A DNA stretch of 44,570 nucleotides, from the IMG/VR virus record IMGVR_UViG_2877973648_000004; one strand, written 5' to 3'. This document shows positions 1 through 32,896 of this stretch, piece by piece. Below the pieces are notes generated by a model. That model saw only the letters and a list, made by a program, of their open reading frames with translations, was not told where the DNA came from and did not search any database. Positions within the stretch are counted from its first letter, which is position 1. Each line of letters opens with the position of its first letter. This DNA is from a virus. Taxonomy: Duplodnaviria > Heunggongvirae > Uroviricota > Caudoviricetes. The position numbers and the translations under genes are program-made.

Positions 1-549
1 TCAGCTAGCTGGAAACTTTTTATACAGAGTTGAGAGCCCTACTCCATACGTTTTTGATACGCTTTGTCGTGATTCACCGGTTGCCATCCGCTCCCCCATT
101 TCCCGCCATTGCTCATCCGTGAACTTAGGCCTGCGACCACCAACTCGCCCTTTTGCCCTGGCTACGGCCAGCCCTGCTAAGGTACGTTCGCTATTAAGAT
201 CAGATTCATATTGTGCTGCGGAAAGGATGTTACGAAAGTTATAGCGGCCGCTGGCTGTTTTGAGATCCACGCCATCGGTAATACTGCGGAAGTTGATACC
301 CTTTTCCTGTAACTGCTGGAACATCAACAGCGCATGCAGAACGTTGCGGCCTATCCTGTCCAGCTTCCAGACCACCAGTTCATCCCCCGGCTGCATAGTG
401 GCGATGAGCCGTTTTAGAACCGGCCGATTCGATTTCCTCCCGCTGGCATGCTCTTCAAAAATTTTCTCACAACCCGCTGACTTGAGCGCCGTTAGTTGCA
501 ATTCAGTGTCCTGGTGGTTTGTTGATACTCGGGCATAACCGTAAATCAT
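1..549 (-). CDS. Serine-recombinase DNA invertase (Hin/Gin/Pin family)
   Basis: N-terminus MIYGYARVSTNHQ with catalytic-Ser context, resolvase/invertase-like length (182 aa), AGGAGA RBS before ATG at 549; sits beside an invertible tail-fibre segment. Confidence 0.88.
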   Translation of the reverse strand: MIYGYARVSTNHQDTELQLTALKSAGCEKIFEEHASGRKSNRPVLKRLIATMQPGDELVVWKLDRIGRNVLHALLMFQQLQEKGINFRSITDGVDLKTASGRYNFRNILSAAQYESDLNSERTLAGLAVARAKGRVGGRRPKFTDEQWREMGERMATGESRQSVSKTYGVGLSTLYKKFPAS

Positions 550-601
550 GGGATTTCTCCTGTTATAAAAACAGGAGAAACGGCGAAGCATCACCAGATT
601 T

Positions 602-955
602 TTGATGGTTATAAAAAAGGTTGGTTTGGGAGAAGCGGCAAAACGGAATGTGGGAACAGGGGAAAATCAGATACCTGATATGTCAGCTTATTCATCAGGA
701 TCTGGCTGGCAAAAATTGCCTGATGGTTCAATTGAACAGTGGGGAAGAATTAATTTCCCGACTAACGCCGCGGCGGTATCTACAAATGTGACTTTCACCA
801 TTCCTTTTACGCAGGAGCCAGACGTAGTGATTGTATATGACGGCGGTTTTGGTGGTGGGAATATGTGGGGCGCAACTAACTGGACGAAAACAGGTTTCGT
901 TGCTCATTGTAACTATGGCTTTGAAGGTGGAGCCTTCTACGCGAAAGGGCGTTAA
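602..955 (+). CDS. Alternative tail-fibre C-terminal cassette (silent in this orientation; fuses to the constant fibre N-terminus after inversion)
   Basis: ORF begins inside the crossover site (KKVGLGEAAK) with a TTG pseudo-start; Gly-rich fibre-tip-like sequence; followed by its own assembly gene. Confidence 0.55.
   Translation: MMVIKKVGLGEAAKRNVGTGENQIPDMSAYSSGSGWQKLPDGSIEQWGRINFPTNAAAVSTNVTFTIPFTQEPDVVIVYDGGFGGGNMWGATNWTKTGFVAHCNYGFEGGAFYAKGR
609..634. repeat. Invertase crossover site (left), hix/gix-like 26-bp imperfect palindrome
   Basis: ttataaaaaaggttggtttgggagaa; reverse complement shares the half-site TTCTCCCAAACC and central AA with the site at 2456-2481. Confidence 0.65.
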
Positions 956-957
956 TT

Positions 958-1398
958 ATGAAATATTTGTATGTTGATAATCTGGCGTACCCTTATGCCC
1001 TCCAGTCTGTTTACGCTGCAAAAGGCCAATGGCCAGAAGGAAAAGGCGTAGACATAGACGAAGCTATTTTCAGGGAATATTTCCATGACACGCCGCCCGA
1101 AGGTAAGCGCAGAATTACCGCAGGCGACGGAATGCCAGCTTGGGCAGATGTTCCTCCACCAACACGTGAAGAACAAATTGCATCAGCCGAAACTAAAAAG
1201 CAGCAATTGATTAACCAGGCCAACGAATACATCAACAGTAAACAATGGCCAGGTAAAGCATCAATTGGTCGTCTGAAAGGTGAGGAACTGGTGCAATATA
1301 ATTTGTGGCTGGATTATCTGGACGCACTGGAACTGGTCGATACTTCCGGTGCGCCAGATATTGAATGGCCTACGCCTCCGGCAGTTCAGGCCAGATGA
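958..1398 (+). CDS. Tail fibre assembly protein (alternative-orientation copy)
   Basis: ATG at 958 directly after the alternative fibre cassette; C-terminal DIEWPTPP motif paralogous to the minus-strand assembly protein (DVIWPELP). Confidence 0.65.
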   Translation: MKYLYVDNLAYPYALQSVYAAKGQWPEGKGVDIDEAIFREYFHDTPPEGKRRITAGDGMPAWADVPPPTREEQIASAETKKQQLINQANEYINSKQWPGKASIGRLKGEELVQYNLWLDYLDALELVDTSGAPDIEWPTPPAVQAR

Positions 1399-1972
1399 CG
1401 TCCGGCGCTGTGCTGGTATCTGTTGCCGTCACCGCGTCAATGTAATCCAGCACAGCGTTAAGTCGGGTGTTTTCTGGCTGCGTCAGCTTCCGCCCGGCCT
1501 GTAATTTCAGTTGAATCAGACTGATGGAAGCCATTGCTGCATTAATCAGTGACTGGCGCTGTGCTTCTGCCGCGTCTAGTGCGGCGCTATGCTGTGCCTC
1601 GGTATCCGTCACCCATTTCTCACCATCCCATTTATCGTATGGCGTTAATGGGGCGATAGTGGTTGTATTTTCAGGGTAATCACCCGGAACTGTGATTTCT
1701 TTGGTATCTCCCGTTTCGGTACTATAGACAACTTCACCGCGATGGTCTGGCACATATTCCCATGAATTTAAATCTACAGAGCGACAGATTGCATAACCAG
1801 CTTTATGTGTACCTGGTGCATCCAGACAGGAACATGCCGGGATACCGACGCCGACAGCGAGATATTCAGTTGATGTAGAAATATATTCCCGCGTTTCGCC
1901 ATCATAGTTATGTACGATGATTTCCCCATCATTTAAAGCGTAACCGTCTTTTCCCAAAATAGCCTGTTCCAT
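1370..1972 (-). CDS. Tail fibre assembly protein (expressed orientation)
   Basis: Immediately downstream of the fibre gene; shares the C-terminal motif with the 958-1398 product; 3' ends of the two assembly genes overlap convergently. Confidence 0.7.
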   Translation of the reverse strand: MEQAILGKDGYALNDGEIIVHNYDGETREYISTSTEYLAVGVGIPACSCLDAPGTHKAGYAICRSVDLNSWEYVPDHRGEVVYSTETGDTKEITVPGDYPENTTTIAPLTPYDKWDGEKWVTDTEAQHSAALDAAEAQRQSLINAAMASISLIQLKLQAGRKLTQPENTRLNAVLDYIDAVTATDTSTAPDVIWPELPEA

Positions 1973-2752
1973 TTATGCAGCCCTCACAATGTAGTTAAAT
2001 GCAATGTTTCGCGGGCTACCATCACCGGCGCCGGAACTGACATGATTGGTTCTATCCATTCGTTTACTGTCATTTGTTGTTCCACTCCCATCCTTCCACG
2101 AATACAATAACCCGCCATCGCCAATGCTCAACTGCACCGCAAATACGGATGAACCGGATGAATAAACATCTCCAGCCATGAGTGGGTTCCCTGTCCATCC
2201 ATGCATTTCATGGTTATGTTCAAGGATAGATGCTGCCTGACTTGAAAGCAGCAGTCTCGCGGAATCAACACCTCGCCCATCATCCCACCCGCGAATAAAC
2301 TCACCGCGCAAATCCGGTAATTTTAACTTTGGGTAAGCCTTTGCCAGTTTTGGGTACTCTTCGGCAGAAAAAGGTGCACCGTTGCATTTCAGCCAGCCTG
2401 TTGGTGGTGTGGCTGAAGGCCACGGAACAGGCACACCAACGGGTAACGCTGAGCCTTCTCCCAAACCAAGGTTTGTGAGAGCCGTAGAAATCGCCGCTGC
2501 ACCATCTGATTTGATATCGGCAAATGGGTTTGCACGGCTCAGTGTGAGTTTTTGAATGGCTTTTAAAACCTGAGTCATATCGTTAATGTCGAGCGCCAAT
2601 CCTGCTGACTCTACGATATGCGCTAACTCTTCCTGCATGGCATTAAACGCTGCTGCCCGCAGCCTCGTTGCGGCAATACCACCAGCAACACTTCCATCAG
2701 TATATTTGCCATCCTGCGTTGCAGTGGCTTCGACTTGCCCGATTCGGAGCAT
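1973..2752 (-). CDS. Tail fibre protein (constant N-terminus ~2470-2752 plus invertible variable C-terminus)
   Basis: Position after baseplate genes; crossover site falls ~95 codons into the ORF; Gly/Ser-rich C-terminal region. Confidence 0.75.
   Translation of the reverse strand: MLRIGQVEATATQDGKYTDGSVAGGIAATRLRAAAFNAMQEELAHIVESAGLALDINDMTQVLKAIQKLTLSRANPFADIKSDGAAAISTALTNLGLGEGSALPVGVPVPWPSATPPTGWLKCNGAPFSAEEYPKLAKAYPKLKLPDLRGEFIRGWDDGRGVDSARLLLSSQAASILEHNHEMHGWTGNPLMAGDVYSSGSSVFAVQLSIGDGGLLYSWKDGSGTTNDSKRMDRTNHVSSGAGDGSPRNIAFNYIVRAA
2456..2481. repeat. Invertase crossover site (right), inverted relative to 609-634
   Basis: ttctcccaaaccaaggtttgtgagag; lies inside the tail-fibre ORF at the GLGE codons, which are also encoded at the left site. 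Confidence 0.65.
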
Positions 2753-2803
2753 AGTTAATCCTCACTTAGTGTTAAGCGATAAAATCAGAGGGGGAAATAT
2801 CAG

Positions 2804-3397
2804 TTATGAATAATTGAAAATGATGTTCAGATGGGATGGGGCAATTTTGTTGATTGAACACTCCAGTTGTTTATTGCCCCACGATGCGAGCGGATCTCCG
2901 CAGTAGGACGCGCCAGCAAGCGAATACTTGATCGTTGTTTGTGGCGCATTTATCCGCCAGGTAAATGGCCACTCGTCACCGTTAAGCGCATCACCGCATA
3001 CTGACATGCCACTCATAGCGGGCCGGAACTGTGTGATAGTGATGGTATAACCAAGAGCTGCAGCCACCCGGATGTAATAATCGCGGTTCAGGCCGCCGGT
3101 GCTGATTAACTTTGCCACCACGGCGCGCTGGCGATCGCTGACGCCACCGGATTCACCAATCGCACAATCATCTGGTAACCCCAGAGAGCTTTCCCATTCT
3201 GACAACATTACCGTCGCTGTAGGGGGAAAAGCACCAGTAATCAGGCTTTGCGCATCGTTGTCAGAACGCTGAAACGCGCTGCCCAGTGCCCGTAATACCG
3301 CAGCCTGTACCGTTTTTTGCGATCTGGGCCACGCCCTGCCCGTCGGCAGCAACGCGCCAAGCGCACCGGCATAATCATTTTTTGAAAAGAGGCTCAT
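2804..3397 (-). CDS. Baseplate/tail protein (Mu gp48-like)
   Basis: 197 aa, between baseplate J-like gene and fibre gene; start overlaps the upstream gene end. Confidence 0.5.
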   Translation of the reverse strand: MSLFSKNDYAGALGALLPTGRAWPRSQKTVQAAVLRALGSAFQRSDNDAQSLITGAFPPTATVMLSEWESSLGLPDDCAIGESGGVSDRQRAVVAKLISTGGLNRDYYIRVAAALGYTITITQFRPAMSGMSVCGDALNGDEWPFTWRINAPQTTIKYSLAGASYCGDPLASWGNKQLECSINKIAPSHLNIIFNYS

Positions 3398-4536
3398 ACA
3401 AAATTCACCCCGCCAAGCACCGGAATTTCGCCAACAGCAAAGGTGATATTGGCCATCGGAGAGTTAAGGATATAGCCCGTCGTGCCACTAACACCGCCGA
3501 TACTCCCGTTAATATCAGAGAGGTAAACTTTCCCGGAACCATCAGGGTTAGCCTCATCAAAAAACAGCGCCGTCAGCGCGTCTTTTATACCCTGAACTGT
3601 GGTGCTGTCGGCATTTTTGATACCAGAGATTTCAATATTGATGACTTTCTTGATCGGGGAACATACGAAAACAATGGCAGTGTCTGTCTGCTGCGGATAG
3701 ATGTGGTCGGCGACAGCGAGCTGGTCTCCGGTGGCTTTAACAGCCCCCCAGTCCTCAAGTTGGGATATTCCATCGGTACCGACCGGAAACCCACCATTGA
3801 CATTCCGATCACACATGATATACACGCCAACGGTCCCGGCCCCGTTCAGACGCCGCTTTACCCACGCGCGGGTGACGCCCGAAACCTCAAGCGCCCATTT
3901 TTTATAATCGGCGTCGCTTCCACCCTGAGGCGGATTCTGCCATGCCAGCAAGCCACGACTGCGAAAGTCCTCTTCCGTTTCAATATCGGCTCCGCCGGTC
4001 GCAGCGGACAGTAACGTTACCTGTGGATCCACGCCAGCAATATTCGCGTCCAGGGTCATTATGGTCCCGGCATCAGCGTTACCGCGCGCGCCTCCACCCG
4101 TTACATCACTGGTAATATCCGGCAGGATGGCCGTCACCGCGACGATACCAAATCCATCTGCCTGAATTTTAAGATCTGCATCCGTCCGGTACTGGTATCC
4201 GTCCCCGCGGTTAATGATCGAGCCAACAGGGATAATACTGTCAACACTGCCACTAGCCTGTACCGCAGGCGACTTCGCCGCTGCAGCTGGTTTTCTGAAT
4301 ACCTGCTTAAGGGCCATCCACCCGGCGAGATACTCATCGGTAGAGGTAAACGGGTTTGTCTGCAGGGCAATATAGTCAAGGTAGGCGTAATGCAGATGCC
4401 CCATCCCCGCATCCATGTCAGCCAGTACCTTCAGGTTCGCGAAGCGCAGGAGCGCACCAACATCCTCAAGCTCCGCCTGCATAAATTTCCGGTTTCCGTC
4501 GCGGAGTTCGCTCAGCGTCGGTCGTTTAAACGGCAT
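3394..4536 (-). CDS. Baseplate J-like protein (Mu gp47-like)
   Basis: About 380 aa from internal ATG (MPFKRPTLSEL) immediately after the preceding stop; position in a Mu-like baseplate module. Confidence 0.65.
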   Translation of the reverse strand: MPFKRPTLSELRDGNRKFMQAELEDVGALLRFANLKVLADMDAGMGHLHYAYLDYIALQTNPFTSTDEYLAGWMALKQVFRKPAAAAKSPAVQASGSVDSIIPVGSIINRGDGYQYRTDADLKIQADGFGIVAVTAILPDITSDVTGGGARGNADAGTIMTLDANIAGVDPQVTLLSAATGGADIETEEDFRSRGLLAWQNPPQGGSDADYKKWALEVSGVTRAWVKRRLNGAGTVGVYIMCDRNVNGGFPVGTDGISQLEDWGAVKATGDQLAVADHIYPQQTDTAIVFVCSPIKKVINIEISGIKNADSTTVQGIKDALTALFFDEANPDGSGKVYLSDINGSIGGVSGTTGYILNSPMANITFAVGEIPVLGGVNFV

Positions 4537-4537
4537 A

Positions 4538-4975
4538 TTAACGTTGCTCCCATATCCAGTAAAACCTGAATTCCTGCCAGTCCTTCCCCGGTGCCTGATA
4601 GCGGATAATGAGATTGAGCCGGTCAGGCAGGACGATCCTGGCAACAGGAATAACCTCGCTGACAACGCCATCAACCTTTAACCAGTTGAGCGCTTCACTC
4701 GAGTATTCCTCCGCTTTTTTTGCTACATCCGGGGTCAGTTTTTTCCGCCGTAGCAGCCACAACCGGGATCCCAGTTGGGATTCCTCCCCAGAATCCCCCC
4801 ACCAGCCGCGGCGATCGCTATCCTCATAATCATCGTCAGCGCGCGCCAGCCTGTCAGTAAACAGGCTGTCCAGTATTGCAGTCTGTAAATCGTTCCCCGT
4901 GGTGAGTTCGCCCAGCCCTTTCTGCCAGTCAGCAAACATCTCATCCACATTCCAGAATGAAGCGATGTCACTCAT
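4538..4975 (-). CDS. Baseplate protein (Mu gp46 / gp25-like)
   Basis: 145 aa, between spike and J-like genes with overlapping stop/start. Confidence 0.55.
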   Translation of the reverse strand: MSDIASFWNVDEMFADWQKGLGELTTGNDLQTAILDSLFTDRLARADDDYEDSDRRGWWGDSGEESQLGSRLWLLRRKKLTPDVAKKAEEYSSEALNWLKVDGVVSEVIPVARIVLPDRLNLIIRYQAPGKDWQEFRFYWIWEQR

Positions 4976-5556
4976 GTCACCTGATCCTCTGTTTTTTGGC
5001 TGCGGATATTGTCATTGCCACTCTGGGCATTTTTAACCACATGATCATGGTCATTATGTGCATCCCGCAGCTCTTTCAGTGTTCGGGTATTGGTTTCACA
5101 GTTATCAACAATGTCACCCGTGCACCTCAGGATCGGGGTATTTGCAAGAATCCCCTGGCTGGCATTGATGGTCACGTTAGTGGCGTTATTGACCTCAACA
5201 TTCTGGCCCTTTGCATCCAGGAAGATCCCCTTCTCCGTCAGGAGAATATTAAGACCCCACTGGTTATACATGACCGTTTCGCCCGCTTTCAGGCCTGTAT
5301 GACGGAACCCCTGATGGTTGGACGCAATTACCACCGCGCTGGAACGATCACCGCCAATAAAAGCCAGAACCACGTCAGTCCCTGACGGCAGGCCGGATGA
5401 AAAACCAAATTCAGCCATCCGCGGTGCGCTGGCCACCTCCAGCGGAGTCTGGTACTGGATTGACTGCACCACCCCACCATCTTTCATAGCCGTGATCCGG
5501 CCAATCCCCAGCATGCCGGCGATCCTGGTCGCTGCATGTTTAAATAGTTGCTTCAT
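4972..5556 (-). CDS. Baseplate assembly/spike protein (gpV / Mu gp45-like)
   Basis: 194 aa, Gly-rich N-terminal beta region, conserved position after the hub gene. Confidence 0.6.
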   Translation of the reverse strand: MKQLFKHAATRIAGMLGIGRITAMKDGGVVQSIQYQTPLEVASAPRMAEFGFSSGLPSGTDVVLAFIGGDRSSAVVIASNHQGFRHTGLKAGETVMYNQWGLNILLTEKGIFLDAKGQNVEVNNATNVTINASQGILANTPILRCTGDIVDNCETNTRTLKELRDAHNDHDHVVKNAQSGNDNIRSQKTEDQVT

Positions 5557-6638
5557 GTATTGAATCCCGCCAGGTTCTGGTAGAAGGCATATGGCTGAAC
5601 GGCGAATGCTTCAGGCGGCATCAGCGTCATGCGTGCATGGGTGCCGTAGTCATCGCGCATATAGGTGACTTCTGCCAGTAGCAATTCAGTCTCCGGCAAC
5701 CGTAAGGTGGGAAGATCAACGGGGATCAATGTGTTTGGTTCCCACAGTTTCCCGTCTTTATCCCGCCAGGAATCGATGGTTACCGAGAGCTGTTTTGAAC
5801 GTCCGTACCGCCGGTTCATTTCCCAGTCGATCGCACTTTGTGCCTGTTGAGTAGCCATCAGGGTACTTTCCACAATCGATATATGTTTTCGGTACCGCAT
5901 ACGGGCGGCCTCCGGATCTCTCGCCGTTGCCAGAGTCACAGCGTCATAGGCCGTATCAGGCGAATACCCTGCAATTGGAGAAACGCTCATTGATACACCG
6001 ACATAATCTGAAAACCTGTCAGCCATCGATTTGCGGTAGTATGCCTGCTCGACATTTACCCCTTCGGCTATCCCACTCGCCGCACGACGTGTTCCCACCC
6101 GGGTCAGTAACAGGTTTCCATCGGGCTGATCGTAGTAAAGCAGAGCAGACCATCTGGCCACCCGATCGATGACTTCTTGCGGAGACTCACCCCAGTTCAG
6201 AGTGAACTGGGGTACCTTCACAAGTTCATCAACATCCGTGGTTACGGTGATGCCGTAGTAGGATGCCAGGCGAGAAGCAATTTCAAGTGCATTACTGGCA
6301 TTAATGACGTTGTTAGGCCACTCAGCTGAGCAATCCACCAGGTCCTGACATTTGCTCCTGCCCGTGGCGCGGACCTCATGGCGGGAGCGCGATAGTGCGG
6401 GTTCCCAGTCATCAACATATCCCGTCAGTGTCAGATCATCTCCGATACGAACTTCACAAGACATTCCCTCTTCAACGAGTTGACGATCTTCGTTGCCAGG
6501 GAAGTAATCCATTAGCCCAAGATCGAAATCAGAGGGAAAACGCTCAATACCCCGCGTTACCCGGACAGAATCCCACCCCTCGATGATTTTGCCGTCGACC
6601 GTCAAAGAAACAACATCCAGATCGCTGTCTGCATTCAT
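5553..6638 (-). CDS. Baseplate hub protein (Mu gp44 / P2 gpD-like)
   Basis: 361 aa; synteny between DNA-circulation-like and spike genes. Confidence 0.6.
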   Translation of the reverse strand: MNADSDLDVVSLTVDGKIIEGWDSVRVTRGIERFPSDFDLGLMDYFPGNEDRQLVEEGMSCEVRIGDDLTLTGYVDDWEPALSRSRHEVRATGRSKCQDLVDCSAEWPNNVINASNALEIASRLASYYGITVTTDVDELVKVPQFTLNWGESPQEVIDRVARWSALLYYDQPDGNLLLTRVGTRRAASGIAEGVNVEQAYYRKSMADRFSDYVGVSMSVSPIAGYSPDTAYDAVTLATARDPEAARMRYRKHISIVESTLMATQQAQSAIDWEMNRRYGRSKQLSVTIDSWRDKDGKLWEPNTLIPVDLPTLRLPETELLLAEVTYMRDDYGTHARMTLMPPEAFAVQPYAFYQNLAGFNT

Positions 6639-8038
6639 TGCCTCAGTACCTTCATGGTTGTCGGCATAAACGCCGGATGCGGTACGCGCGCTTCCTGTAC
6701 CAGTTCATCTGCACGGGTGGCATCCTGGTATAATCGGTTTGCCAGCGTCAGCGCCGGAAGCGGCTGAGCGGTAGTAACCTGCAGAAGCTCGCTCAGACCA
6801 GAAGCACGCTCACTCATCGTAGAAAGGAATGCCGATCTGACGGCGAGAAGCGCGTTATACATATCATCGTCCGCGCGGTCTCCAGCCAGAACCAGCGCCG
6901 TATCAAGTTGCACAGAAACTCGTTGAGTTAACTCTTCTGCCTCGTCTGTACTGGCTGGTCTGGAGTCCGCAGCGGCACTGGTCATGGCACCAGTACATAG
7001 CACAACAATCAGCGTGTTCATGGTCGCCGAAATCGCTTTGCTGCTGTCGGACTGCTGGTACTCCGTGCTGATTGAATTAGCCAGTTTTTCCAGCGCTGTG
7101 ATTCGGTCATTAACGCTGCCGGCGCTGTTAAGAATTGCGTTTACCACGTCGGCGACGCCCTGGACAAACTCATCAGGTGTGTTGGAGCTGCTAAGCTGGC
7201 TCGACCTGTCGGTAACATTTTTCCGGTCCATTACCGACTGGGCTGTTACCTTGTCAGCCAGTGCTCTCTCATCATCCACATCAGCAACTGACGATTTGCC
7301 AGCAACAGCAGAGGAACTACCGCCCACAGAGCCTTTACTGTAACGTCCGTACCGGGTATTCCCGAACGTGGAGTTCAGGACATTGCTGAGATTCGTGACC
7401 TGACTGATGGTGCTGTCAACCATGTTAGTCCAGAACGTGACCGTGCCTCTGATGGTGTTTATAGCCTGTGTGACACCGCGGATTTCACTCTTAACCCTGG
7501 CAATCGTGCTCAGCACAGCAGTGCTGACCAGTTTCAGATAGTTGGTTTTCACCGTGGCGCCTGCAACGGTACTGCCCGTGACAGCAAACACTTTAAGCCC
7601 TGATTCAATTGCCATCAGGGTAAATTCAAATACTCGCCCGTTCTCCATCGAACCGGAAATACGCAAACCATTCTCAGGGATGGAAACCGTTAATTCGCCC
7701 AGTGTCGGATGGACAAGCGTACCGCTACCTTTTTGTTCACAGGCTTCAATCAGTGACTGGCGCTGCGTGATAGCATCGCCGCCGCCGTAAACCTGGCTGT
7801 TCTGGATCAAGAAACCGCGAATAACAAATCGCCGTGTTGCCCGCCCGATATCCTCTATCCAGGCTGTATCACGGTAGGGATATTCATGTACCGCCTGGCG
7901 TCGGCCGTGGCTCCCTTCCTCAGCAACAATTGCAAATGGCACACCTCTGAATGAGCTGGGCCGTAACTGCCCCTGCCAGTCATCGCTGGTATCTCCCCCC
8001 AAAAGAGAAGTTATTGCGTCCTGGATAATTGACGGCAT
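6635..8038 (-). CDS. Mu gp43-like tail protein (DNA circulation protein family)
   Basis: About 467 aa; GGAGG RBS before ATG at about 8038 (track start 8041 is GTG); position after tape measure in a Mu-like tail. Confidence 0.55.
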   Translation of the reverse strand: MPSIIQDAITSLLGGDTSDDWQGQLRPSSFRGVPFAIVAEEGSHGRRQAVHEYPYRDTAWIEDIGRATRRFVIRGFLIQNSQVYGGGDAITQRQSLIEACEQKGSGTLVHPTLGELTVSIPENGLRISGSMENGRVFEFTLMAIESGLKVFAVTGSTVAGATVKTNYLKLVSTAVLSTIARVKSEIRGVTQAINTIRGTVTFWTNMVDSTISQVTNLSNVLNSTFGNTRYGRYSKGSVGGSSSAVAGKSSVADVDDERALADKVTAQSVMDRKNVTDRSSQLSSSNTPDEFVQGVADVVNAILNSAGSVNDRITALEKLANSISTEYQQSDSSKAISATMNTLIVVLCTGAMTSAAADSRPASTDEAEELTQRVSVQLDTALVLAGDRADDDMYNALLAVRSAFLSTMSERASGLSELLQVTTAQPLPALTLANRLYQDATRADELVQEARVPHPAFMPTTMKVLRQ

Positions 8039-8050
8039 CACGCCTCCGGA

Positions 8051-8078
8051 AATAAAAAAACCGCCATGTCGGCGGTTT
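8051..8078 (-). terminator. Intrinsic-terminator-like hairpin plus T-run inside the tail cluster
   Basis: Minus strand reads aaccgcc-gacat-ggcggtt followed by 7 T; lies between a small ORF and the start of the next tail gene. Confidence 0.4.
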
Positions 8079-8101
8079 ACATATGCACTGAAATGACTTA
8101 T

Positions 8102-8248
8102 CTATTTATCGCTGGATCCATTACGGTCAAGAGATTCGGCGATCCTGTAAAGATGCTCAGTCGCCTTGAATGAGTTCATTAGGAACTCATAAAGCACACG
8201 TAAAAGCAATGCACTTACCACCGATATCGTAATCGCCGTGAAATTCAT
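8102..8248 (-). CDS. Small hydrophobic protein (about 48 aa), possible moron in tail-cluster gap
   Basis: ATG at about 8248, predicted MNFTAITISVVSALLLRVLYEFLMNSFKA..., single TM-like helix; sits in a 340-bp gap unusual for a tail operon; no clear RBS. Confidence 0.25.
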   Translation of the reverse strand: MNFTAITISVVSALLLRVLYEFLMNSFKATEHLYRIAESLDRNGSSDK

Positions 8249-8381
8249 TGAGACAACAGAAAAAACGAGGTAAATGCCAATTACCAGGTAAACAAGCGCA
8301 AAAACCTTTGGAGTCTAAATGGCTTTTGCTCCAAAAACTTTTTCATTCATAACTTCTTCCTTAACGAAATGACGACAGTGA

Positions 8382-17035: not shown

Positions 17036-18669
17036 TTTTCCTCCGGTTCGGTAATGGTCTGGCTCGCAAACTGGTCAGCCTGTGCCCAGCTCGGAAGCGG
17101 TAATCCGCGTTTAAGACATGACTCAATTTCTCTCTGGCGCTGATCAAGCACTTCTTCCCAGTCTTCACCGACGTTTTCACCCACCTCAATCTCGAGGGTG
17201 GAAAGTCCGGCATCCAGACCAAGAATGGCGCCTTTTTTCTCTGCAACCGGATCCACCCAGCCGCGCCCTGGCCCCATCCAGCGCGCGCGAGAATACGCGG
17301 CTCTGGCGTCAACAAAATCAGGTGCGCCTGCGGGCAGGGGTAAATCCTCATTGTCGTGAACTTCTTCAACAAAGGCGGTGAGAATGGGCTGAGCGAAGCC
17401 GGTAGAAAAATCGTCCCGGCGGCGAGTCAGTGTTTTCCATGCCTCCAGCAACGAGGAGCGTGCAGAACTGTAGTTAACGTCAGACCAGTCCTGGGTGACC
17501 TGCTGTGGGGACAACCCTGTTCCTGAAGAAAAATTACGGAGAACAGCAGATTCGAAGACTTCAAAATTGCTGTAGGGCCGCGCCGCGTTAACCGTCGTGA
17601 TTTTCTCACCAGGATAAAGAATGGGCATTCGGGCACCATTCTGAAGTGTCAGACGCCGATCGTTATGGAACTCAACACGCCCGTCCTGATAAGTGCCTAA
17701 CTCCGACTCGTCATAGGTCTCGCCCAGGGCAGACTGAACCATCGCAGGGTCATAGGGTGACTCAATGTAAGCGGCAAATATGGCATTAAGAATTGCTGCC
17801 TCAAGCTCACTCTGGTCATACTTCACCAGCATTTTCAGACGCTGAATAACCGGAGTCAGGATGCCGTTACCGCGGTGCTGCGCGCCACGCTCATGATCAA
17901 AATCGTGAACCACATGCGGGCGGCCCCAGTCAGTTTCACGCGGGATACGCTGCCACGTCATGGTTTTAGCCCCGCTCCACCAGTCACCGATATGGGCCTC
18001 CCTGATGTGGTAAGCAACCGGCGCACCGTCCGCATCAATTTCAACGCCACCACGGACATTTGGCATATCGAAATTCTGCTGAGGATTACTGAGGCGGTCA
18101 GGATCGACAATCTGTACCGTGGTGGCGTAACGCCCTCTTCCGGGACCAAGCCTGTCAGTTCTGTACTGGAGAATGGCCAGAGCATCCCCGTCAATAAGCT
18201 TATGACGAAATCCCAGGCGTAACATCTGCGACACGGTGAGTTTTCGTTCAACATCACAATACCGGCCAGGATCGTTACTCCAGGTCCGCCAGTGCCCGTC
18301 CAGTGCTTTTCCGTACTCTTCCGCCCAGGACGCATCAAACGCCTTGTTTCCGGTGATCATTCTGAGAACACGGTAATCGGGTTTCATGATGGGGCGGAAG
18401 TTGGCACCAACCGCATTATCCAGCAGACGTGTGACCGCACCGTTTGCCCAGCCGTCATTACGGACCAGATCGCGTGCGCGGGACACGATGCGATCCCGGT
18501 AAATGTTAATTTCATTGTCCGGGGACCACAGCGCGGGTTGCCAGTTCGCCAGTTGATCGCTGAAAGAGTCAGCTGCGTCATAAGGTACGCGGCTCCCCCC
18601 CACCAGCATAGAGGGACGCTGCTGTCGCAACGGCTGCCCATCAGAGCCCAGTATCTGTACTTTATTCAT
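17032..18669 (-). CDS. Portal protein (lambda gpB-like)
   Basis: 545 aa; segment RARDLVRNDGWANGA resembles lambda B; conserved position. Confidence 0.8.
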   Translation of the reverse strand: MNKVQILGSDGQPLRQQRPSMLVGGSRVPYDAADSFSDQLANWQPALWSPDNEINIYRDRIVSRARDLVRNDGWANGAVTRLLDNAVGANFRPIMKPDYRVLRMITGNKAFDASWAEEYGKALDGHWRTWSNDPGRYCDVERKLTVSQMLRLGFRHKLIDGDALAILQYRTDRLGPGRGRYATTVQIVDPDRLSNPQQNFDMPNVRGGVEIDADGAPVAYHIREAHIGDWWSGAKTMTWQRIPRETDWGRPHVVHDFDHERGAQHRGNGILTPVIQRLKMLVKYDQSELEAAILNAIFAAYIESPYDPAMVQSALGETYDESELGTYQDGRVEFHNDRRLTLQNGARMPILYPGEKITTVNAARPYSNFEVFESAVLRNFSSGTGLSPQQVTQDWSDVNYSSARSSLLEAWKTLTRRRDDFSTGFAQPILTAFVEEVHDNEDLPLPAGAPDFVDARAAYSRARWMGPGRGWVDPVAEKKGAILGLDAGLSTLEIEVGENVGEDWEEVLDQRQREIESCLKRGLPLPSWAQADQFASQTITEPEEK

Positions 18670-18932
18670 CAGAATCTAAACCTCGCTGGTTTCCGGGGAC
18701 GAGAGATAATCCCCAGTTGCGCCTGCAGAAGTTGAATCAGGGCCAGCAGATCAGCCAGGGTGCTTTGCTGATAGGACACTGATCGCGTCCCGTCTCCCTG
18801 CGTATAGGAAAACGAAACACCGTGGCTCCCGGTTGCTAAATCAATGTACGCCTGCTGAGCTTTCGCAAGCGCATCCCTGAGCTGATCGTCAGTCATTGCG
18901 CCGGCAAGCAGGCTGGTGTTCCGGTTGAACAT
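18669..18932 (-). CDS. Head-tail joining protein (lambda gpW-like)
   Basis: 87 aa between terminase large subunit and portal, as for lambda W. Confidence 0.6.
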   Translation of the reverse strand: MFNRNTSLLAGAMTDDQLRDALAKAQQAYIDLATGSHGVSFSYTQGDGTRSVSYQQSTLADLLALIQLLQAQLGIISRPRKPARFRF

Positions 18933-18940
18933 GATTTTCC

Positions 18941-21070
18941 TTATTTCGGCAGGAGTTGCGATATTCGCTTACGTTTGACCGGCGCTGGTTCTTCAATAAC
19001 CGCACCCGGCAGCTCGTAATTGATTTTTTCTTCCTGTCCAACTGGCGCTGGCAGGAACTTATCCGGATCGGCTTCGAGGTTGGCGGCCCGGACGTTGAGT
19101 TTTAACCCCATATGTTTGAGACCGCACAGCGCGGCATAGCTGTAAACGAGGCAGTCAAGCGCTTCGTTAGCTCGTCCTGGTATTGCTTCCCAGATACTGT
19201 ACCGCTGCCCGGAAATGACTTTGTAAACCAGTCGCTCCGCCAGCAGCTGATTGAAGTACCCGAGATCGCGATCGTCAGGAAAATGCATATAACCCGCAGC
19301 GGCGGCGCCAGGTTTGGGTGGCTCAAGATGCAGGCGACCGCGTATCACGTCTTTCGCTGAGTTAACCCCCAGAATGACAGGGCGGAAACTGGCTTTGCTT
19401 TTCGATGATGGTCGTTTGGTCGGCCAGACAGGATTGCGTTTACCTCCCTGTGCAGACTCCCCCTTAATTGCCCAGACACGACGGCCAAGACGCTCTTTGG
19501 CGAATTCGTATACCTTCTGCGTATGGTGGCCACCGGAGTCCATGCACGTTGCCATGATATTCAGGCCGCGCCCGTCACCACGTCGCCAGATCTGTTTCAG
19601 GTATGCATCCAGTCGCTTCCAGGGTTCTTCCGTCTCAAGGTCACCATAAATAACGTCATGCGCGACCGACCACGATTCTTCATCTCTCCCCCAGCCGGTG
19701 ATCGTAATTTCGAAGCGATCGTCCTGGGTATCAACTCCAGCTGTTAACAATGCCACCCCGTCCGGAACGACGGCCGGAAATATTTCCCGGCGCGCCAGCA
19801 GAACATCAACAGGGAGCTGTTTCCCATGATTAGGTCGGTGCGGAAGCCCCATCTGGGTATTCCACCACGCCTGTTCCTTATCCGGATCGCCCTTCGCATC
19901 GATATATTTTTTCGCAATATCCGACGGCTTATCTTTTTGCCAGGGGCTGAAAAGCTTGGATGCCTGGTACCCCGCGTGGTGGTTATCGACTGCCTCCTTT
20001 CCACAGGAGGGGCAGATTGCGCGATAGACCGCATGCCGTTCCGACTCTGACCATTGCCAGACCTTTTCAACGCTGCCCTCGTCTGCCGCCCGCCAGGCAA
20101 GGTCATAATCCATCAGCGGTGAGTGCCGCTCCCCGCAGCACTCAAATGGGCGCGTCTGATGCCATCGAATAGTGTGCAGAGCTCTGAGGCGCTGTCCTTC
20201 GGACCAGCCACTACCACAGCATTCGCAATAGAGCATCGCCGATTTAGTCAGGTGTTTATCTCCCTCTTTCGGCCACTGAACGTGTTTGAAAAAGTCGGGG
20301 AACTGGCGGTGGCCACAGTGCGGGCAAACCACAGATGCCCGGCGCTGATCGGAGTCGGCGTAGCTGTCAGCAATGCGGCTCTCATCCTCCACCGTCGGCG
20401 AACAGGCGCGTACAGACAGCCAGGTCAGGCCAAATGTCGCTGTACGCTCTTCGGCCAGCGCAATTGGATCGCCTTCGCGGGTTATCGGGTACTTGTCCAC
20501 TTCATCCGCCAGCAGGACACGAATCGGACGACGCGCAAGGTTATCAGGGCTACCAGCACCCGCCAGCGCCAGAAATCCGCCAGTGAATGCCTTGTAAAGA
20601 ATGGTTTCTTTCGAGCTTTTCTGTTTCGAATCACCGATGATTTTACGCAGTACCGGCGTCACCCTTACCAGCGGGCTAATACGCTCTTTCGAAAACTGTT
20701 CAGCGGCTTCTTCTTTCGGCTGCAGCAGCAGTATCGGACAAGGATCGAGGTGGGCAAAATAGCCAAAAAGGTTTTCCAGCAGTGCTGTCTTCATCAACTG
20801 GGTACAGCACATTACAGTGATGATATGAACCCCGGACTCCGTCGCGGCAAGCATCGGTCCGCGGGCAATTTCTACCGTCGATGTTTCCCAGTTTCCCGAA
20901 GTGCTCCCAGCCTCTTTTGCCAGCTTACGATAGTCATCTGCCCACTGCGGCACACTGATACGCGGCGGGGGTGTCCAGCCTTTGCGGACGCTTAATTCAA
21001 GACGCTCAATCTTCTGCCGGGTTAAACTCTGGCTCTCCGAGGACTGAGATGTGTTTGTGGACATGTTCAA
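18941..21070 (-). CDS. Terminase large subunit (lambda gpA-like)
   Basis: 709 aa; motifs VVCPHCGH and NEALDC resemble lambda A; true start may be slightly downstream since it overlaps the small subunit by about 60 nt. Confidence 0.85.
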   Translation of the reverse strand: MNMSTNTSQSSESQSLTRQKIERLELSVRKGWTPPPRISVPQWADDYRKLAKEAGSTSGNWETSTVEIARGPMLAATESGVHIITVMCCTQLMKTALLENLFGYFAHLDPCPILLLQPKEEAAEQFSKERISPLVRVTPVLRKIIGDSKQKSSKETILYKAFTGGFLALAGAGSPDNLARRPIRVLLADEVDKYPITREGDPIALAEERTATFGLTWLSVRACSPTVEDESRIADSYADSDQRRASVVCPHCGHRQFPDFFKHVQWPKEGDKHLTKSAMLYCECCGSGWSEGQRLRALHTIRWHQTRPFECCGERHSPLMDYDLAWRAADEGSVEKVWQWSESERHAVYRAICPSCGKEAVDNHHAGYQASKLFSPWQKDKPSDIAKKYIDAKGDPDKEQAWWNTQMGLPHRPNHGKQLPVDVLLARREIFPAVVPDGVALLTAGVDTQDDRFEITITGWGRDEESWSVAHDVIYGDLETEEPWKRLDAYLKQIWRRGDGRGLNIMATCMDSGGHHTQKVYEFAKERLGRRVWAIKGESAQGGKRNPVWPTKRPSSKSKASFRPVILGVNSAKDVIRGRLHLEPPKPGAAAAGYMHFPDDRDLGYFNQLLAERLVYKVISGQRYSIWEAIPGRANEALDCLVYSYAALCGLKHMGLKLNVRAANLEADPDKFLPAPVGQEEKINYELPGAVIEEPAPVKRKRISQLLPK

Positions 21071-24179: not shown

Positions 24180-24400
24180 ATCACCTCCGAAAGAACGGGG
24201 TGCTGTTTGTAGTAAGGGATCAGGCCCTCGGGACGATTTAACAAGAAGGCATGTCGATGATGGTTCCCGTGAGCCTGAAATAGAAAGCCCCAGCAAATGC
24301 CTAGGCTAAATGAGGTGCCAGATCATATATCTGGCCGTATAACCTTGCGTTTGGTATTATTAAATCGCCAAAAGTAACCCTTCAAACACAAGGATTTAAA

Positions 24401-24931
24401 ATGACAAAAAGGAAGTACCGATTTTATCATGCGGACAGGGGTAACTTGCTGAACCCTGACATGACAATAATCCCTGTAAATGGCCTCTCTTCATTTGGAA
24501 AGCATTATCTCTCCCGGATAAATAGTGGAAATATGAGCGACGTGCTAGACGAAAATGTACAAAGAGAGATGCTGTATGAAAATGTGCGGATGGAAAATTT
24601 CCCATCCCGCCCAAGCCGATTCTCGTGCCTTTTTGGTGCGAACTCCATTCCTGAAGCGGAAAGCTTCGCCAGAAAGATAATCCCGCAACCGACCACCCCA
24701 ATTAATATTTATGAAGTTTTTACTGAAAATTTTGTGATTCTCGATATGAATTGGATGGATTACATAACAACAGATTTCGGTAGTAGGGTTGAATATGCCC
24801 GGCAGTACTGGTATTCATCAATTACCCAGCACGCCCCACTTACCGGCGATAGGATGATACCAACCCTGGAAGTCCTGCTGCCGCTTCCCGTGGAAGTAGG
24901 CAAGCAAGTCAGTACTGTCGCTTTTGATTAA
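24401..24931 (+). CDS. Hypothetical cargo protein (AT-rich, opposite strand to the late operon)
   Basis: 176 aa, AAGGA RBS 7 nt before ATG, lower GC; between the Q/terminator region and the lysis genes. Confidence 0.5.
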   Translation: MTKRKYRFYHADRGNLLNPDMTIIPVNGLSSFGKHYLSRINSGNMSDVLDENVQREMLYENVRMENFPSRPSRFSCLFGANSIPEAESFARKIIPQPTTPINIYEVFTENFVILDMNWMDYITTDFGSRVEYARQYWYSSITQHAPLTGDRMIPTLEVLLPLPVEVGKQVSTVAFD

Positions 24932-25100
24932 TCTGACAGTTCTGCTCAGGGAAATGGGCCAAAGGTTTATGTAAAGTCCAAAGCACTTCGGAAAGGATAG
25001 CTTTATATAGCTCACCATCATTTGCATGATAGCGAAACCTTTCAGAAGGTGAGATTTCGAAAAGTACCTTTCCCTCATCTGAAACAATTCGGACTTTCAT
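24909..25100 (-). CDS. Small hypothetical protein convergent with the cargo gene
   Basis: 63 aa with GGAGGAAAG RBS; 3' end overlaps the 176-aa gene by about 23 nt. Confidence 0.35.
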   Translation of the reverse strand: MKVRIVSDEGKVLFEISPSERFRYHANDGELYKAILSEVLWTLHKPLAHFPEQNCQINQKRQY

Positions 25101-25451
25101 CTTTCCTCCAAATTAGAAGCTACTGATTCAGTTATTACTTACTCCAGATACGACAAAGCCCCACCATTTCTGGCAGGGCTAGATTATTAAGCTGTGTGTC
25201 GAAGTGACCACTCTTAACACGTTAAACTAAAAAATGCGGACCGCACTAGCATTTTTTTAATTATTTTTGCCTACTAACGACTGCATCCATCTCAAGGCGA
25301 ACATCCAGCATTGACAGACACCCCTCAATAAACCCTTCAGCAAGCAGCATTTCTATGCGTATCTGCTTTTCGCTTTTCTTCCGGTGCTTCGCCTTCTGCC
25401 GTTTTGAATACCGTAGAATATAATGCCCAACCAACAAATGATTGTCTGCGG

Positions 25452-27062: not shown

Positions 27063-27272
27063 TCACCCCCAGACCTTTTGTCGAAAGGTTCTTGGTGTAC
27101 GCGCCGGATGCTCGCATTCAGGCAATTTTGCGCTGATAGTCCAGGTGATGTTGTCGCGATTCAGGCTACGTTCTACCGTGGCGCCACGACGACGGTAACT
27201 GGCCACCAGCTCGTCGGCCTGATCGGTTGTGCATTCGTGATGGTGGAACCAGGAATATTTCATCGCCATCAC
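27063..27272 (-). CDS. Hypothetical nin-region protein
   Basis: 69 aa ORF abutting ninG. Confidence 0.35.
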   Translation of the reverse strand: MMAMKYSWFHHHECTTDQADELVASYRRRGATVERSLNRDNITWTISAKLPECEHPARTPRTFRQKVWG

Positions 27273-27868
27273 CCCGCAAAGCTCATGAGCTGCGATGCGG
27301 CGTTTTCCGCTTCACGCTGGTCCTTGAATGCCCGGGACAATACCCAGCGCCACAGAACATCGAGCGCGGCTTTGTACAGCTGCTGGAACTCGGTTTCGTC
27401 CATGTTGGCAAAGGCAATGCTGCGGGGGTGTTTGCGAAGGGTGCCGTCGGGAAGCTGTATGGCGTCGTAGTGGCCAGACTCGATGATCACCCATGCACGA
27501 TATGCGTCATAGGATTTGCAGATGCTGATACTACCGGCGCGCTTATCGGCGATACGGTCCAGATACTGCTCGGCAGCATCCAGCAGTGCGCCTTCGTTTC
27601 CACCAAATGCCGCGAGGAATTTAGCGTACCCGGTCACCAATTTACGTTCATTGGAAGAAATCGCCCCACCGGTGGGTTCCCAGTATTCAAACCCGAGATT
27701 CAGGAGCGCAAAGAAACGGCGATGGAATGCTGGATTCCTCACCTGACGAAATTCGGCTACCAATACGGCACCAAGTTTGATTTTTGATTGCAGAATATCG
27801 CTGGTCTCCGGCGTAGCGGGGATCAGAATTCCTGAGGACTGCTTAATGAGTTGTAGTTCGTGCGCCAT
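27269..27868 (-). CDS. Hypothetical nin-region protein
   Basis: 199 aa ORF in an operon-like array; no recognised motif. Confidence 0.45.
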   Translation of the reverse strand: MAHELQLIKQSSGILIPATPETSDILQSKIKLGAVLVAEFRQVRNPAFHRRFFALLNLGFEYWEPTGGAISSNERKLVTGYAKFLAAFGGNEGALLDAAEQYLDRIADKRAGSISICKSYDAYRAWVIIESGHYDAIQLPDGTLRKHPRSIAFANMDETEFQQLYKAALDVLWRWVLSRAFKDQREAENAASQLMSFAG

Positions 27869-28792: not shown

Positions 28793-29896
28793 TCAAACCA
28801 GTTGAAGTAGATTTCTTGGATTTGACAGTGGGCGGTTTACCGAGAATAACTCCCTAACCAACTCCTGGCTTAAACCAGTTTTCATGAGAATGCTCATCCA
28901 TGTTGCATCATCCAGCATTTCAATCGCCTCAGCTAACATACTCGGTTCTTCCGGGCGAATAAATTCATCTCCTGGTTCAACTTTCGTATATCCTTTAGAG
29001 TTCAAATGCATATAACCTGTTCTTGCCTGCTCCTGCGTCAGCAGGCCTAGAGTTGTTGCTCGGTAAATGCACATTTTAAGACTAATCTTCCACCGAAGCT
29101 TAAACTCAACTAGGGCGTTCCAATCGAACTGTCTTCCTCGTATACGGGGAAACTCTTTAATAAAGGACAATCGAGGAACTAGCAACGCGCTTGAAAAACG
29201 ATCCGCTTGCGATTCAGTCACTTTATCTCCTGTGGTTATACCTTCGTGCATAACCAAGTGCCCCAATTCGTGACCTAAATCTGATCGGAATCTGCATATA
29301 CTCTTTTTGACGTTATTTCGGATGATTACTGGCCTGTTGTTATGAACAGTAAAAGCATCTACGCGGTCATCCACTCCTGTCACATGAGCAACAATAACCC
29401 CCAAACTCTCAGCCAGTTTGACCATTGAGGATATAGGTCCCAGCCCTAAGTTCCATGCTCTTCTGCAGTCTTCCGCTACACGTTCAATATCATTTGGAGT
29501 CAGCAATTCAGCACCGGGGTGCTCAGGTATGAAAACATCAGGAAACTCGATTTCTCCCTCAACGGCAGAGATTATAATGTTAAGAATCTCCGCCCTTGCC
29601 AGAACACTATTGGTTAATGTTTGGGTTCTCGATTTTTTACTCCGAAAATGGCAAACATCGCTTTCTAAAGCATATTTTCGTTCAGTAAATAGGAAATCAG
29701 ATTTAATCATCAGCGCAGATGAGATTAATTCTAACAACTGTTCTGATGGTTTAAACCCTTTTTCCAATTTGCTAACGAATTGTTTTGTTTTACCAATTTT
29801 CTCCGCTAACTCTTCGCAGGAGAGCCCAACAGCCATTCTGGCTAATTTGAGCTTATCCCCACGATACTCAGCAAAGTCATTCACTTGATGTTCCAT
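28793..29896 (-). CDS. Fused HTH (XRE-type) / ImmA-IrrE-like zinc metallopeptidase
   Basis: N-terminal HTH-like LSCEELAEKIGKTKQFVSKLEKG; HEXXH-type motif HELGHLVMH in the C-terminal half; AT-rich. Confidence 0.6.
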   Translation of the reverse strand: MEHQVNDFAEYRGDKLKLARMAVGLSCEELAEKIGKTKQFVSKLEKGFKPSEQLLELISSALMIKSDFLFTERKYALESDVCHFRSKKSRTQTLTNSVLARAEILNIIISAVEGEIEFPDVFIPEHPGAELLTPNDIERVAEDCRRAWNLGLGPISSMVKLAESLGVIVAHVTGVDDRVDAFTVHNNRPVIIRNNVKKSICRFRSDLGHELGHLVMHEGITTGDKVTESQADRFSSALLVPRLSFIKEFPRIRGRQFDWNALVEFKLRWKISLKMCIYRATTLGLLTQEQARTGYMHLNSKGYTKVEPGDEFIRPEEPSMLAEAIEMLDDATWMSILMKTGLSQELVRELFSVNRPLSNPRNLLQLV

Positions 29897-30527: not shown

Positions 30528-30730
30528 TTCAAGTTTCGCTTTTTTTGGAATTCGTAAACCATATATTTTCGCATTTTCTCGATTTTGTCAACCAAGCAAC
30601 CAAAATCATTTACCGAAAATGATGATTAGAAAGATCCCGCTCATGTCGCATGAGTTGATTGCTAAGCAACCAAATACAAGCCTGACTGAGCTAGGCAACC
30701 ATAGACTTGGTAATGCTACCTTTCAGACAT

Positions 30731-30760
30731 AAAAAACCTCTAACTTAGAGGCTTTTATTC
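30731..30760 (-). terminator. Hairpin terminator (bidirectional-looking)
   Basis: cctcta-actt-agagg with A/T runs on both sides, after the stop of the 106-aa gene. Confidence 0.4.
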
Positions 30761-30782
30761 GTTTGCTATTGGAGTTAAACAC

Positions 30783-31103: not shown

Positions 31104-31156
31104 AAGGACTCCTTATTATGTTCATAATGAATTAGGGTTCAATTATCCATAAGAGT

Positions 31157-31606: not shown

Positions 31607-31609
31607 GGG

Positions 31610-31813: not shown

Positions 31814-31814
31814 C

Positions 31815-32895: not shown

Positions 32896-32896
32896 G

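Follow-up and report, generated by a model that had tools for sequence, protein, structure and literature searches.

An amber-interrupted DUF4282-like gene, probably a moron-type cargo, at the tape-measure junction of an Escherichia coli lambdoid prophage

The gap between the tape-measure protein (TMP) gene and the next tail gene of an E. coli lambdoid prophage most likely holds a pseudogenised cargo of the moron type, lodged at a hot spot that immediately precedes a resident element predicted to be an intrinsic terminator. We assign this reading a probability of roughly 0.65. The stretch of DNA analyzed here, hereafter the window, is the 44,570-nt IMG/VR record IMGVR_UViG_2877973648_000004. 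We propose that the junction is built of two layers. A resident layer of ~65 bp, composed of the terminator hairpin and its U-run followed by the ribosome-binding site (RBS) of the downstream N-like gene, would be found with or without cargo. A cargo layer of ~276–300 bp and of low GC-content would lie between the TMP stop codon and the terminator. The cargo, a gene encoding a small DUF4282-like membrane protein, would have been disabled by a TGG to TAG change at its codon 12, both here and in the majority of E. coli carriers, and the cassette would represent a decaying moron.

The window encodes the integrase, CI/Cro and Q antiterminator (27158–27850) of a lambdoid prophage of E. coli. Its head genes (terminase, portal, protease and capsid) are lambda-like and its tail is Mu-like and contractile. 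The preliminary description of this sequence had referred to a Mu-like cluster, which is accurate for the tail, but the phage is lambdoid overall. In this region, all genes are encoded on the minus strand. The TMP ORF ends with the stop codon TGA 8384–8382 and the next gene, a Mu-N-like DNA-circularization gene that opens the baseplate block, starts either at ATG 8038 (RefSeq annotation) or at GTG 8041 (ORF listing), which leaves a gap of 340 or 343 bp, respectively. The gap that had been noticed between these two genes is therefore present. Based on RefSeq CDS coordinates, which agree with the ORFs of the window over the first 16 kb, it is the widest intergenic gap of the head/tail operon. 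Its GC-content is also low relative to the flanking regions (respectively, 0.39–0.44 and 0.52–0.56). The features of the junction are listed in Table 1.

Table 1. Features of the TMP–N junction in the window (positions are those of the whole window)
Feature	Positions	Strand	Evidence
DUF4282-like small membrane-protein gene, 82 codons, W12amber pseudogene in the window	8102..8350	-	Translation, intact homologues, phrog_12129 and DUF4282 matches
Shine-Dalgarno AAGGAAG, 5 nt upstream of ATG 8350	8356..8362	-	Sequence; same in all close haplotypes
In-frame TAG, codon 12	8315..8317	-	Other alleles TGG, CTA/TCG, TAT
T5 run	8300..8304	-	T6 allele known in Enterobacter cloacae complex
48-aa ORF, residues 35–82 of the 82-aa protein (TM2 and C-terminal helix)	8102..8248	-	ORF listing
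Sigma-70 promoter-like match ATGATA-17-TATAAT, in TMP 3' end	8424..8452	-	10/12 consensus match; codons VNDKGE..TYN
Tape-measure protein gene (TMP), 619 aa	8382..10241	-	phrog_2276, E 3e-156; lytic-transglycosylase-like segment
DNA circularization/baseplate hub gene, Mu gp43 N-like	6635..8038	-	PF07157 (DNA_circ_N), E 2.8e-30; phrog_184, E 2e-85; RefSeq annotation
Shine-Dalgarno GGAGG of the N-like gene	8043..8047	-	Sequence; conserved column block in alignment of relatives
Direct repeat GTCATTTC (8 bp), left copy	8366..8373	-	Repeat search, spacing 276
Direct repeat GTCATTTC (8 bp), right copy	8090..8097	-	Repeat search
Intrinsic-terminator-like element: stem AAACCGCC/GGCGGTTT 8078–8058, loop GACAT (5 nt), T7 8060–8054, then ATT	8051..8078	-	Sequence, folding, relatives

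The interrupted gene and its protein family

A possible 48-aa ORF with a single transmembrane (TM) segment had been described in the gap. This ORF exists, but it constitutes only the 3' part of an 82-codon, two-TM gene that is broken by an amber codon. Indeed, the hydrophobic coding sequence continues 5' of the 48-aa ORF in the same frame, back to TAG 8317–8315, and ATG 8350 is found eleven codons upstream of this TAG. The translation of the 82-codon frame is MNEKVFGAKAI*TPKVFALVYLVIGIYLVFSVVSMNF...DK, with MNEKVFGAKAI*TPKVF at its start. An uninterrupted reading frame is absent from the window because of the TAG at codon 12. Judging from this sequence, the gene is knocked out in the window, where its product would be a peptide of at most 11 aa.

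We analyzed the predicted properties of the 82-aa protein. The AlphaFold2 model presents a two-helix hairpin (helices 3–34 and 37–77; pLDDT 79), and the hydropathy peaks over residues 16–34 and 37–58 are in line with two TM segments. The protein is predicted to form a helical hairpin in the inner membrane, with both termini probably in the cytoplasm. Searching the model against the PDB with Foldseek returned generic TM-hairpin matches alone (E > 3), the NCBIfam search of the protein returned only noise, and no family of the PADLOC-DB defence models was matched at E ≤ 10.

Intact homologues of 79–83 aa were identified by protein search in Enterobacter, E. coli, Citrobacter and Edwardsiella, as well as in metagenomes. 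Pairwise dN/dS among these intact members ranges from 0.09 to 0.23, with dS being saturated. The protein presents a full-length match to phrog_12129 (E 6.2e-11; residues 6–77 correspond to profile positions 2–77 of 79). Matches to DUF4282 (PF14110) were found in all 18 aligned family members (E ≤ 0.01; best 2e-10), although the window-type protein scores 20.9–22.1 bits against this family, which is below the Pfam gathering threshold of 27 bits. In the other direction, a profile search started from the phage clade reaches annotated DUF4282 proteins. An exhaustive profile search yielded 314 clusters at 50% identity, and the prophage clade represents a single one of these clusters. The prophage proteins and DUF4282/PHROG 12129 have in common a length of ~80 aa, a two-helix hairpin and the motifs FG..K.I.TPKI and LR.L.E...SFK..E.L.RIAE. 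They differ in their context: the phage clade is bound to the prophage TMP–N junction, whereas the distant DUF4282 members are found in chromosomal, non-phage contexts. These profile matches suggest that the prophage proteins form a diverged lineage within Pfam DUF4282, a family of two-helix membrane hairpins. We found no mention of DUF4282 in the literature searched.

The resident hairpin and the cargo slot

The preliminary description had reported a hairpin followed by seven T's next to the RBS of the next tail gene, and this element was indeed recovered (8078–8054): the T7 run is followed by 6 nt (ATTTCC) and then by GGAGG 8047–8043. The hairpin is the top-ranked terminator-like site in positions 1–20000 of the window. 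It consists of 8–9 pairs plus T7, with a stem-loop energy of about -12 kcal/mol, and it is located 24 nt past the stop codon of the 82-codon frame.

We then compared this junction across phages. A hairpin with a T-run was found directly before the RBS of the N gene in all 66 IMG/VR relatives with a resolvable junction, irrespective of the presence of a cargo. The 24 distinct variants of the junction all fold, with energies of -10.7 to -21.1 kcal/mol. Covariation computed on the fixed alignment is weak (both sides changed in only two pairs), as close relatives mostly share the stem sequence; we therefore base the case for conservation on the fact that each variant folds by itself. Hairpins are also found at the same junction in phiNP, BZS1, ST64B and SfV, with different stem sequences. 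This comparison of sequences indicates that the hairpin is a resident part of the TMP–N junction in this group of phages and not a part of the insertion. A transcriptional attenuator or terminator, as had been proposed, would therefore belong to the phage group and not to the inserted segment.

In lambdoid late transcription, Q-modified polymerase passes intrinsic terminators. We infer from this property that the hairpin would be read through during lytic growth. The predicted terminator would then shield the baseplate and fibre genes, as unmodified transcription would be stopped before reaching them, including transcription arising in an inserted cargo.

The segment upstream of the hairpin is optional. 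Among the 66 IMG/VR relatives of the N gene, 28 lack a cargo, 28 carry the DUF4282-like gene and 10 carry another cargo. The gap of the 28 cargo-less relatives measures 43–66 nt. Comparison with related prophages, as had been suggested, also revealed a gap of 64–68 nt in E. coli AW1.7, OW1E2 and ES8, whose N genes are near-identical, versus 340 nt in the window; these 64–68 nt correspond to the same hairpin, T-run and RBS. The 340-bp insertion initially described is therefore an optional segment in near-identical prophages, but only ~276–300 bp of it are inserted relative to the cargo-less relatives, with the hairpin, T-run and RBS being resident. This segment is optional and is followed by a hairpin, rather than being a conserved non-coding spacer lacking a termination signal.

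The inserts of the 10 relatives with another cargo are 556–856 nt long. Together with a tandem cargo of Edwardsiella tarda, these present a GC-content of 0.36–0.39 and encode signal-peptide or TM proteins with no family match. Overall, at least five other unrelated envelope-protein cargos were found in the slot upstream of the hairpin. A pair of 8-bp direct repeats (GTCATTTC) surrounds a 276-bp unit in the window, and a single GTCATT is present at the corresponding site in cargo-less relatives. This is suggestive of an insertion or a deletion at this position, but we estimate that chance alone would yield about 1.5 such repeats in 450 bp. Given this estimate, we did not retain the repeat as proof of an insertion mechanism.

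The TMP gene itself is mosaic among relatives, as judged from blocks of identity. In E. coli relatives, the last ~100–250 bp of the TMP gene recombine together with the cassette. Some cargo-less relatives possess the same TMP C-terminal peptide as the window (...GRITTAMNY), which indicates that the cassette is not obligatorily tied to one TMP end.

These patterns bear on an alternative in which the gene would be a late-expressed, optional accessory of the tape-measure or DNA-injection apparatus. It would be co-transcribed with the tail genes and would act in the membrane of the infected cell during lytic growth, rather than being a moron expressed from the prophage. The position of the gene is consistent with this scenario: in Enterobacter, Citrobacter, Edwardsiella and metagenomic prophages, all the loci fetched present a homologue flanked by TMP and DNA_circ_N, down to 56–59% amino-acid identity. 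The homologue of Edwardsiella phage GF-2 (33% identity) is located directly after a TMP-like lytic tail protein and begins right at the TMP stop, a layout suggestive of late expression together with the tail genes. The joint movement of the cassette with the 3' end of TMP in E. coli relatives and the lack of a convincing promoter of its own (see below) also point in this direction. However, the gene is missing from 38 of the 66 close relatives with otherwise identical N genes, which implies that it is dispensable for tail function. In addition, the same slot accepts unrelated signal-peptide or TM cargos, the low GC-content and the chromosomal DUF4282 relatives indicate an acquired cargo, and the TMP C-terminus is shared with cargo-less relatives. 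We consider this alternative unlikely.

Expression from the repressed prophage is a defining trait of a moron. A single sigma-70 promoter-like match (8452–8424) is no more than a candidate promoter of the cargo: the match can be accounted for by TMP codons and has no consistent counterpart in three diverged loci (L014, L017 and L020), where consensus scans found no promoter-like site before the homologous genes. Promoter-like sites are no more frequent in the window than in shuffled sequences, and the cargo-less relatives present TATAAC at the position of this match. A published study of lysogeny transcriptomics reports nothing on the TMP–N junction (PMC7067206).

Alleles at codon 12

We further analyzed the distribution of alleles at codon 12. 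Among 33 complete E. coli genomes with the junction, 22 carry the cassette, with TAG in 21 and TAT in one. The codon could be retrieved by pattern match in 30 IMG/VR contigs, of which 26 present TAG, three TAT and one TGG. The diverged intact homologues encode Trp (TGG) in seven cases, Leu in two and Ser in one (CTA/TCG) at this position. A single transition is sufficient to convert TGG into TAG. The genome with the TAT allele (Tyr), E. coli NCTC9040, is annotated in RefSeq with an 82-aa hypothetical protein (WP_023157309.1), and no gene is annotated at the gap in the 21 other E. coli carriers. TAT descends from TAG and not from TGG, since the derived N59/S79 background is common to the TAT and TAG alleles. 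TAT occurs on two flanking backgrounds and TAG on several TMP backgrounds.

Another derived allele was observed in the Enterobacter cloacae complex (19 contigs examined), in which the T5 run is extended to T6. In this allele, ATG 8346 is joined to the main frame and the TAG is skipped. The resulting product loses the conserved N-terminal motif FG..K.I.TPK, including the invariant Pro14-Lys15. We also considered a programmed frameshift leading from the frame of ATG 8346 to the main frame in the window, but, on inspection by eye, G_TTT_TTG is not a canonical slippery heptamer and this candidate was discarded.

The simplest reading of these data is that a nonsense mutation recently knocked the gene out and was then carried along as a successful prophage lineage expanded. 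The frame located 3' of the TAG remains open in almost all TAG haplotypes, and these haplotypes are nearly identical. The dominance of TAG combined with an open downstream frame could mean that the allele is very young, or that it is not simply dead. The latter possibility would imply that low read-through of UAG, or the TAT and T6 derivatives, provide a low or switchable level of protein, and that selection keeps the amber allele since full expression would be costly in E. coli. The high frequency of TAG in E. coli carriers and IMG/VR contigs, its presence on several TMP backgrounds, its open downstream frame and the existence of two alleles that regain a long ORF from the TAG background (TAT, and T6 with its alternative ATG) are in agreement with this idea. 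On the other side, the near-identity of the haplotypes means that the open frame may reflect youth alone. Four changes were observed within the ORFs of the TAG alleles (codon 27 Y/F/C, T64S, stop83Q and T5 to T6), all of them non-synonymous or disruptive and none synonymous; the Tyr, Phe and Cys variants of codon 27 all arise at one nucleotide (8271). Moreover, N59 stands in place of a conserved S/T, the T6 product lacks the invariant residues of the TPK motif, and the window presents no evident read-through signal and encodes neither a suppressor tRNA nor any other tRNA gene. An amber allele that is still functional therefore appears improbable to us.

Another alternative is that the functional product would be the stand-alone 48-aa protein with a single TM segment (8248–8102). 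The ORF does exist and was called as a gene on 16 contigs. Against this, no Shine-Dalgarno was found in the sequence before ATG 8248 and the corresponding Met35 is not conserved (homologues present F, E, S or V). Conservation and a strong RBS instead define the 82-codon gene, whose hydrophobic coding sequence extends upstream to the TAG, which makes a 48-aa product very improbable. Finally, the entire segment could be devoid of any gene and correspond to a regulatory, non-coding spacer or to a small RNA (attenuator). This view would fit the missing RefSeq annotation in 21 of the 22 E. coli carriers and a weak, sub-threshold Rfam match to AaHKsRNA82 over the hairpin (29 versus 51 bits), but it is barely credible, as relatives possess an intact ORF with dN/dS of ~0.1–0.2 and protein-family matches, the Rfam scan of positions 7900–8600 identified no family at gathering score, and shuffled sequences fold as well as the 81-nt stretch that covers the ORF 3' end, the hairpin and the N start (z = -1.0).

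Comparison with known phages and implications

A pseudogenised moron-type cargo thus remains our preferred reading, and we compared it to the systems that it resembles. Morons are characterized by extra DNA, deviating GC-content, a terminator and chromosomal relatives (PMC3594210). The cassette constitutes extra DNA that is missing from close relatives (64–68 versus 340 nt), and its base composition deviates (gap GC 0.39–0.44; other cargos 0.36–0.39). A predicted factor-independent terminator is found downstream, but this element also occurs in the relatives that lack a cargo and did not arrive with the gene. The small moron that had been suggested initially is therefore consistent with an optional, low-GC segment with a strong RBS, a terminator-like hairpin after it and chromosomal DUF4282 relatives; it is, however, a pseudogene, and the terminator is not its own.

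A close parallel is gene 15 of phage HK97, which was reportedly treated as a moron and an exclusion gene by Juhala et al. in 2000 and by Cumby et al. in 2012. Both genes encode a small inner-membrane protein, are located in a lambdoid tail operon and adjoin the tape-measure gene. Both present their own RBS, a deviating GC-content and chromosomal, non-phage relatives. In both cases, the small TM ORF is followed by a hairpin, and the hairpin-T8 of HK97 abuts the next tail gene in the HK97 record. The product of this gene, gp15, is a YebO-like superinfection-exclusion moron protein for which promoter-driven expression from the prophage and an exclusion phenotype were demonstrated (PMC3594210). 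There are also clear differences: gp15 has one TM segment and its gene is upstream of the TMP gene, whereas the window protein has two and is encoded downstream. In addition, the window gene is broken, and the predicted terminator of the window predates the cargo. Homology between the two proteins was rejected (hhalign probability of 6.2% over 24 columns).

The window resembles phages of the SfV/ST64B/phiNP type in its general organization. The head genes of these phages are lambdoid or lambda-like and their contractile tail is Mu-like. They share the tail gene order (sheath, tube, chaperone, TMP, N, P, gp45, gp46 and gp47) and present a GC-rich hairpin with a T-run between TMP and N. The cultured phages examined differ from the window in that they contain a terminator spacer of 33–45 nt with no cargo, and their N proteins are 40–68% identical to that of the window. 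The tail and baseplate genes of phage Mu are homologous and follow the same order (gp42 Y/gp43 N), but the Y–N gap of Mu is only 4 nt, with neither hairpin nor cargo. The late genes of Mu are expressed from C-activated promoters and not through Q antitermination.

By analogy with HK97 gp15, the intact protein may act in superinfection exclusion: located in the cytoplasmic membrane of a lysogen or of an infected cell, it would block the entry of related phage genomes. This reading is based on the fact that a small inner-membrane protein is encoded beside the tape-measure gene, in a slot where envelope proteins accumulate. We regard such a function as possible, if somewhat doubtful, and it is moot in the window, since the gene is truncated at codon 12. 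A more far-reaching version is conceivable, in which the conserved TMP–N terminator of SfV-like phages would be a docking site that repeatedly captures envelope cargos. The DUF4282-like cargo would then be a new superinfection-exclusion family directed against tape-measure-mediated DNA entry, and it would be toggled off (W12amber) and on (TAG to TAT, T6) by selection and not by drift. We consider this version rather speculative and improbable.

All the elements described here are of known kinds: a moron, the DUF4282/phrog_12129 family and a terminator inside a late operon under Q antitermination, and the finding is within the established moron paradigm. It nevertheless corrects the annotation of these prophages, as the "empty" gap of 21 of the 22 cassette-bearing complete E. 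coli genomes corresponds to a recognisable, nonsense-inactivated gene. It also provides DUF4282 and phrog_12129 with a phage context, just after the tape-measure gene. The natural on and off alleles of this gene (TGG, TAT and TAG, and also T6) make a phage-entry phenotype of DUF4282 testable. Finally, the predicted intra-operon terminator of SfV/ST64B/phiNP-type phages flags a recurrent cargo site, which helps to find genes of lysogenic conversion or exclusion.

Cargo genes between the tape-measure and N genes

The interval between the tape-measure gene and N, the Mu-N-like DNA-circularization gene, carries a tandem pair of cargos in an Edwardsiella tarda prophage (locus L054), in which a gene for a 188-aa signal-peptide protein without a family match precedes the DUF4282-like gene, with the usual terminator-like hairpin after both. 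Four further unrelated low-GC cargos were found in the same slot upstream of N in IMG/VR relatives (L087, L091, L096 and L100). Their products are signal-peptide proteins of 244 aa, ~190 aa and ~165 aa and a two-TM protein of 133 aa, and two of these four cargos match PHROGs of unknown function (31333 and 22446). At the next gene junction of this tail cluster, that between the N-like sb17 and the P-like sb18, Salmonella phage ST64B presents an unannotated 323-nt gap, which may represent another cargo or decay site.

Variation in the small membrane-protein gene and its neighbors

Among otherwise near-identical haplotypes, a single nucleotide in codon 27 of the small DUF4282-like gene (position 8271) is tri-allelic, the codon reading TAC, TTC or TGC (Tyr, Phe or Cys). 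The record of E. coli NCTC9040 (NZ_LR134247.1), whose allele of this gene is intact, contains two places matching the junction query. Its assembly quality is uncertain because the tape-measure gene is split in two and gp46 is frameshifted; compensating frameshifts were also observed in P0007, an older version of the NCTC9040 small protein.

Across E. coli relatives the tape-measure gene shows strong mosaicism, stretches of 100% identity being interspersed with others at 60-75%. Residues 393-525 of its product form a lytic-transglycosylase/endolysin-like segment (phrog_873, E = 2.6e-41), and the tape-measure proteins of diverged relatives match Pfam SLT. The segment adjoining this gene probably extends the chaperone by a frameshift, analogous to lambda G/GT or P2 E/E'. 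At the corresponding position, two Enterobacter loci (L010 and L011) have a called ORF of 44 aa.

Methyltransferases and the tail-fiber end

The prophage encodes three DNA methyltransferases: one of unspecified type, one cytosine-specific and one N6-adenine. At the edge of the window, a recombinase-family gene adjoins the opposed tail-fiber C-terminal and assembly genes, and positions 1-2752 resemble a Gin/Cin-type invertible host-range segment.

Coordinates of the features discussed (in the window unless a locus is named)
Feature	Coordinates	Strand	Remark
Recombinase-family gene	1-554	minus	incomplete, cut by window edge
Tail-fiber C-terminal and assembly genes	602-1398; 1370-2752	plus; minus	opposed orientations
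Tape-measure gene	8382-10241	minus	
Candidate chaperone extension	10242-10382		
DNA methyltransferase genes	24335-25387; 29637-31574; 31567-32901		
Tandem cargos, E. tarda prophage	L054 4277-5381		
sb17/sb18 gap, ST64B	L133 3503-3825
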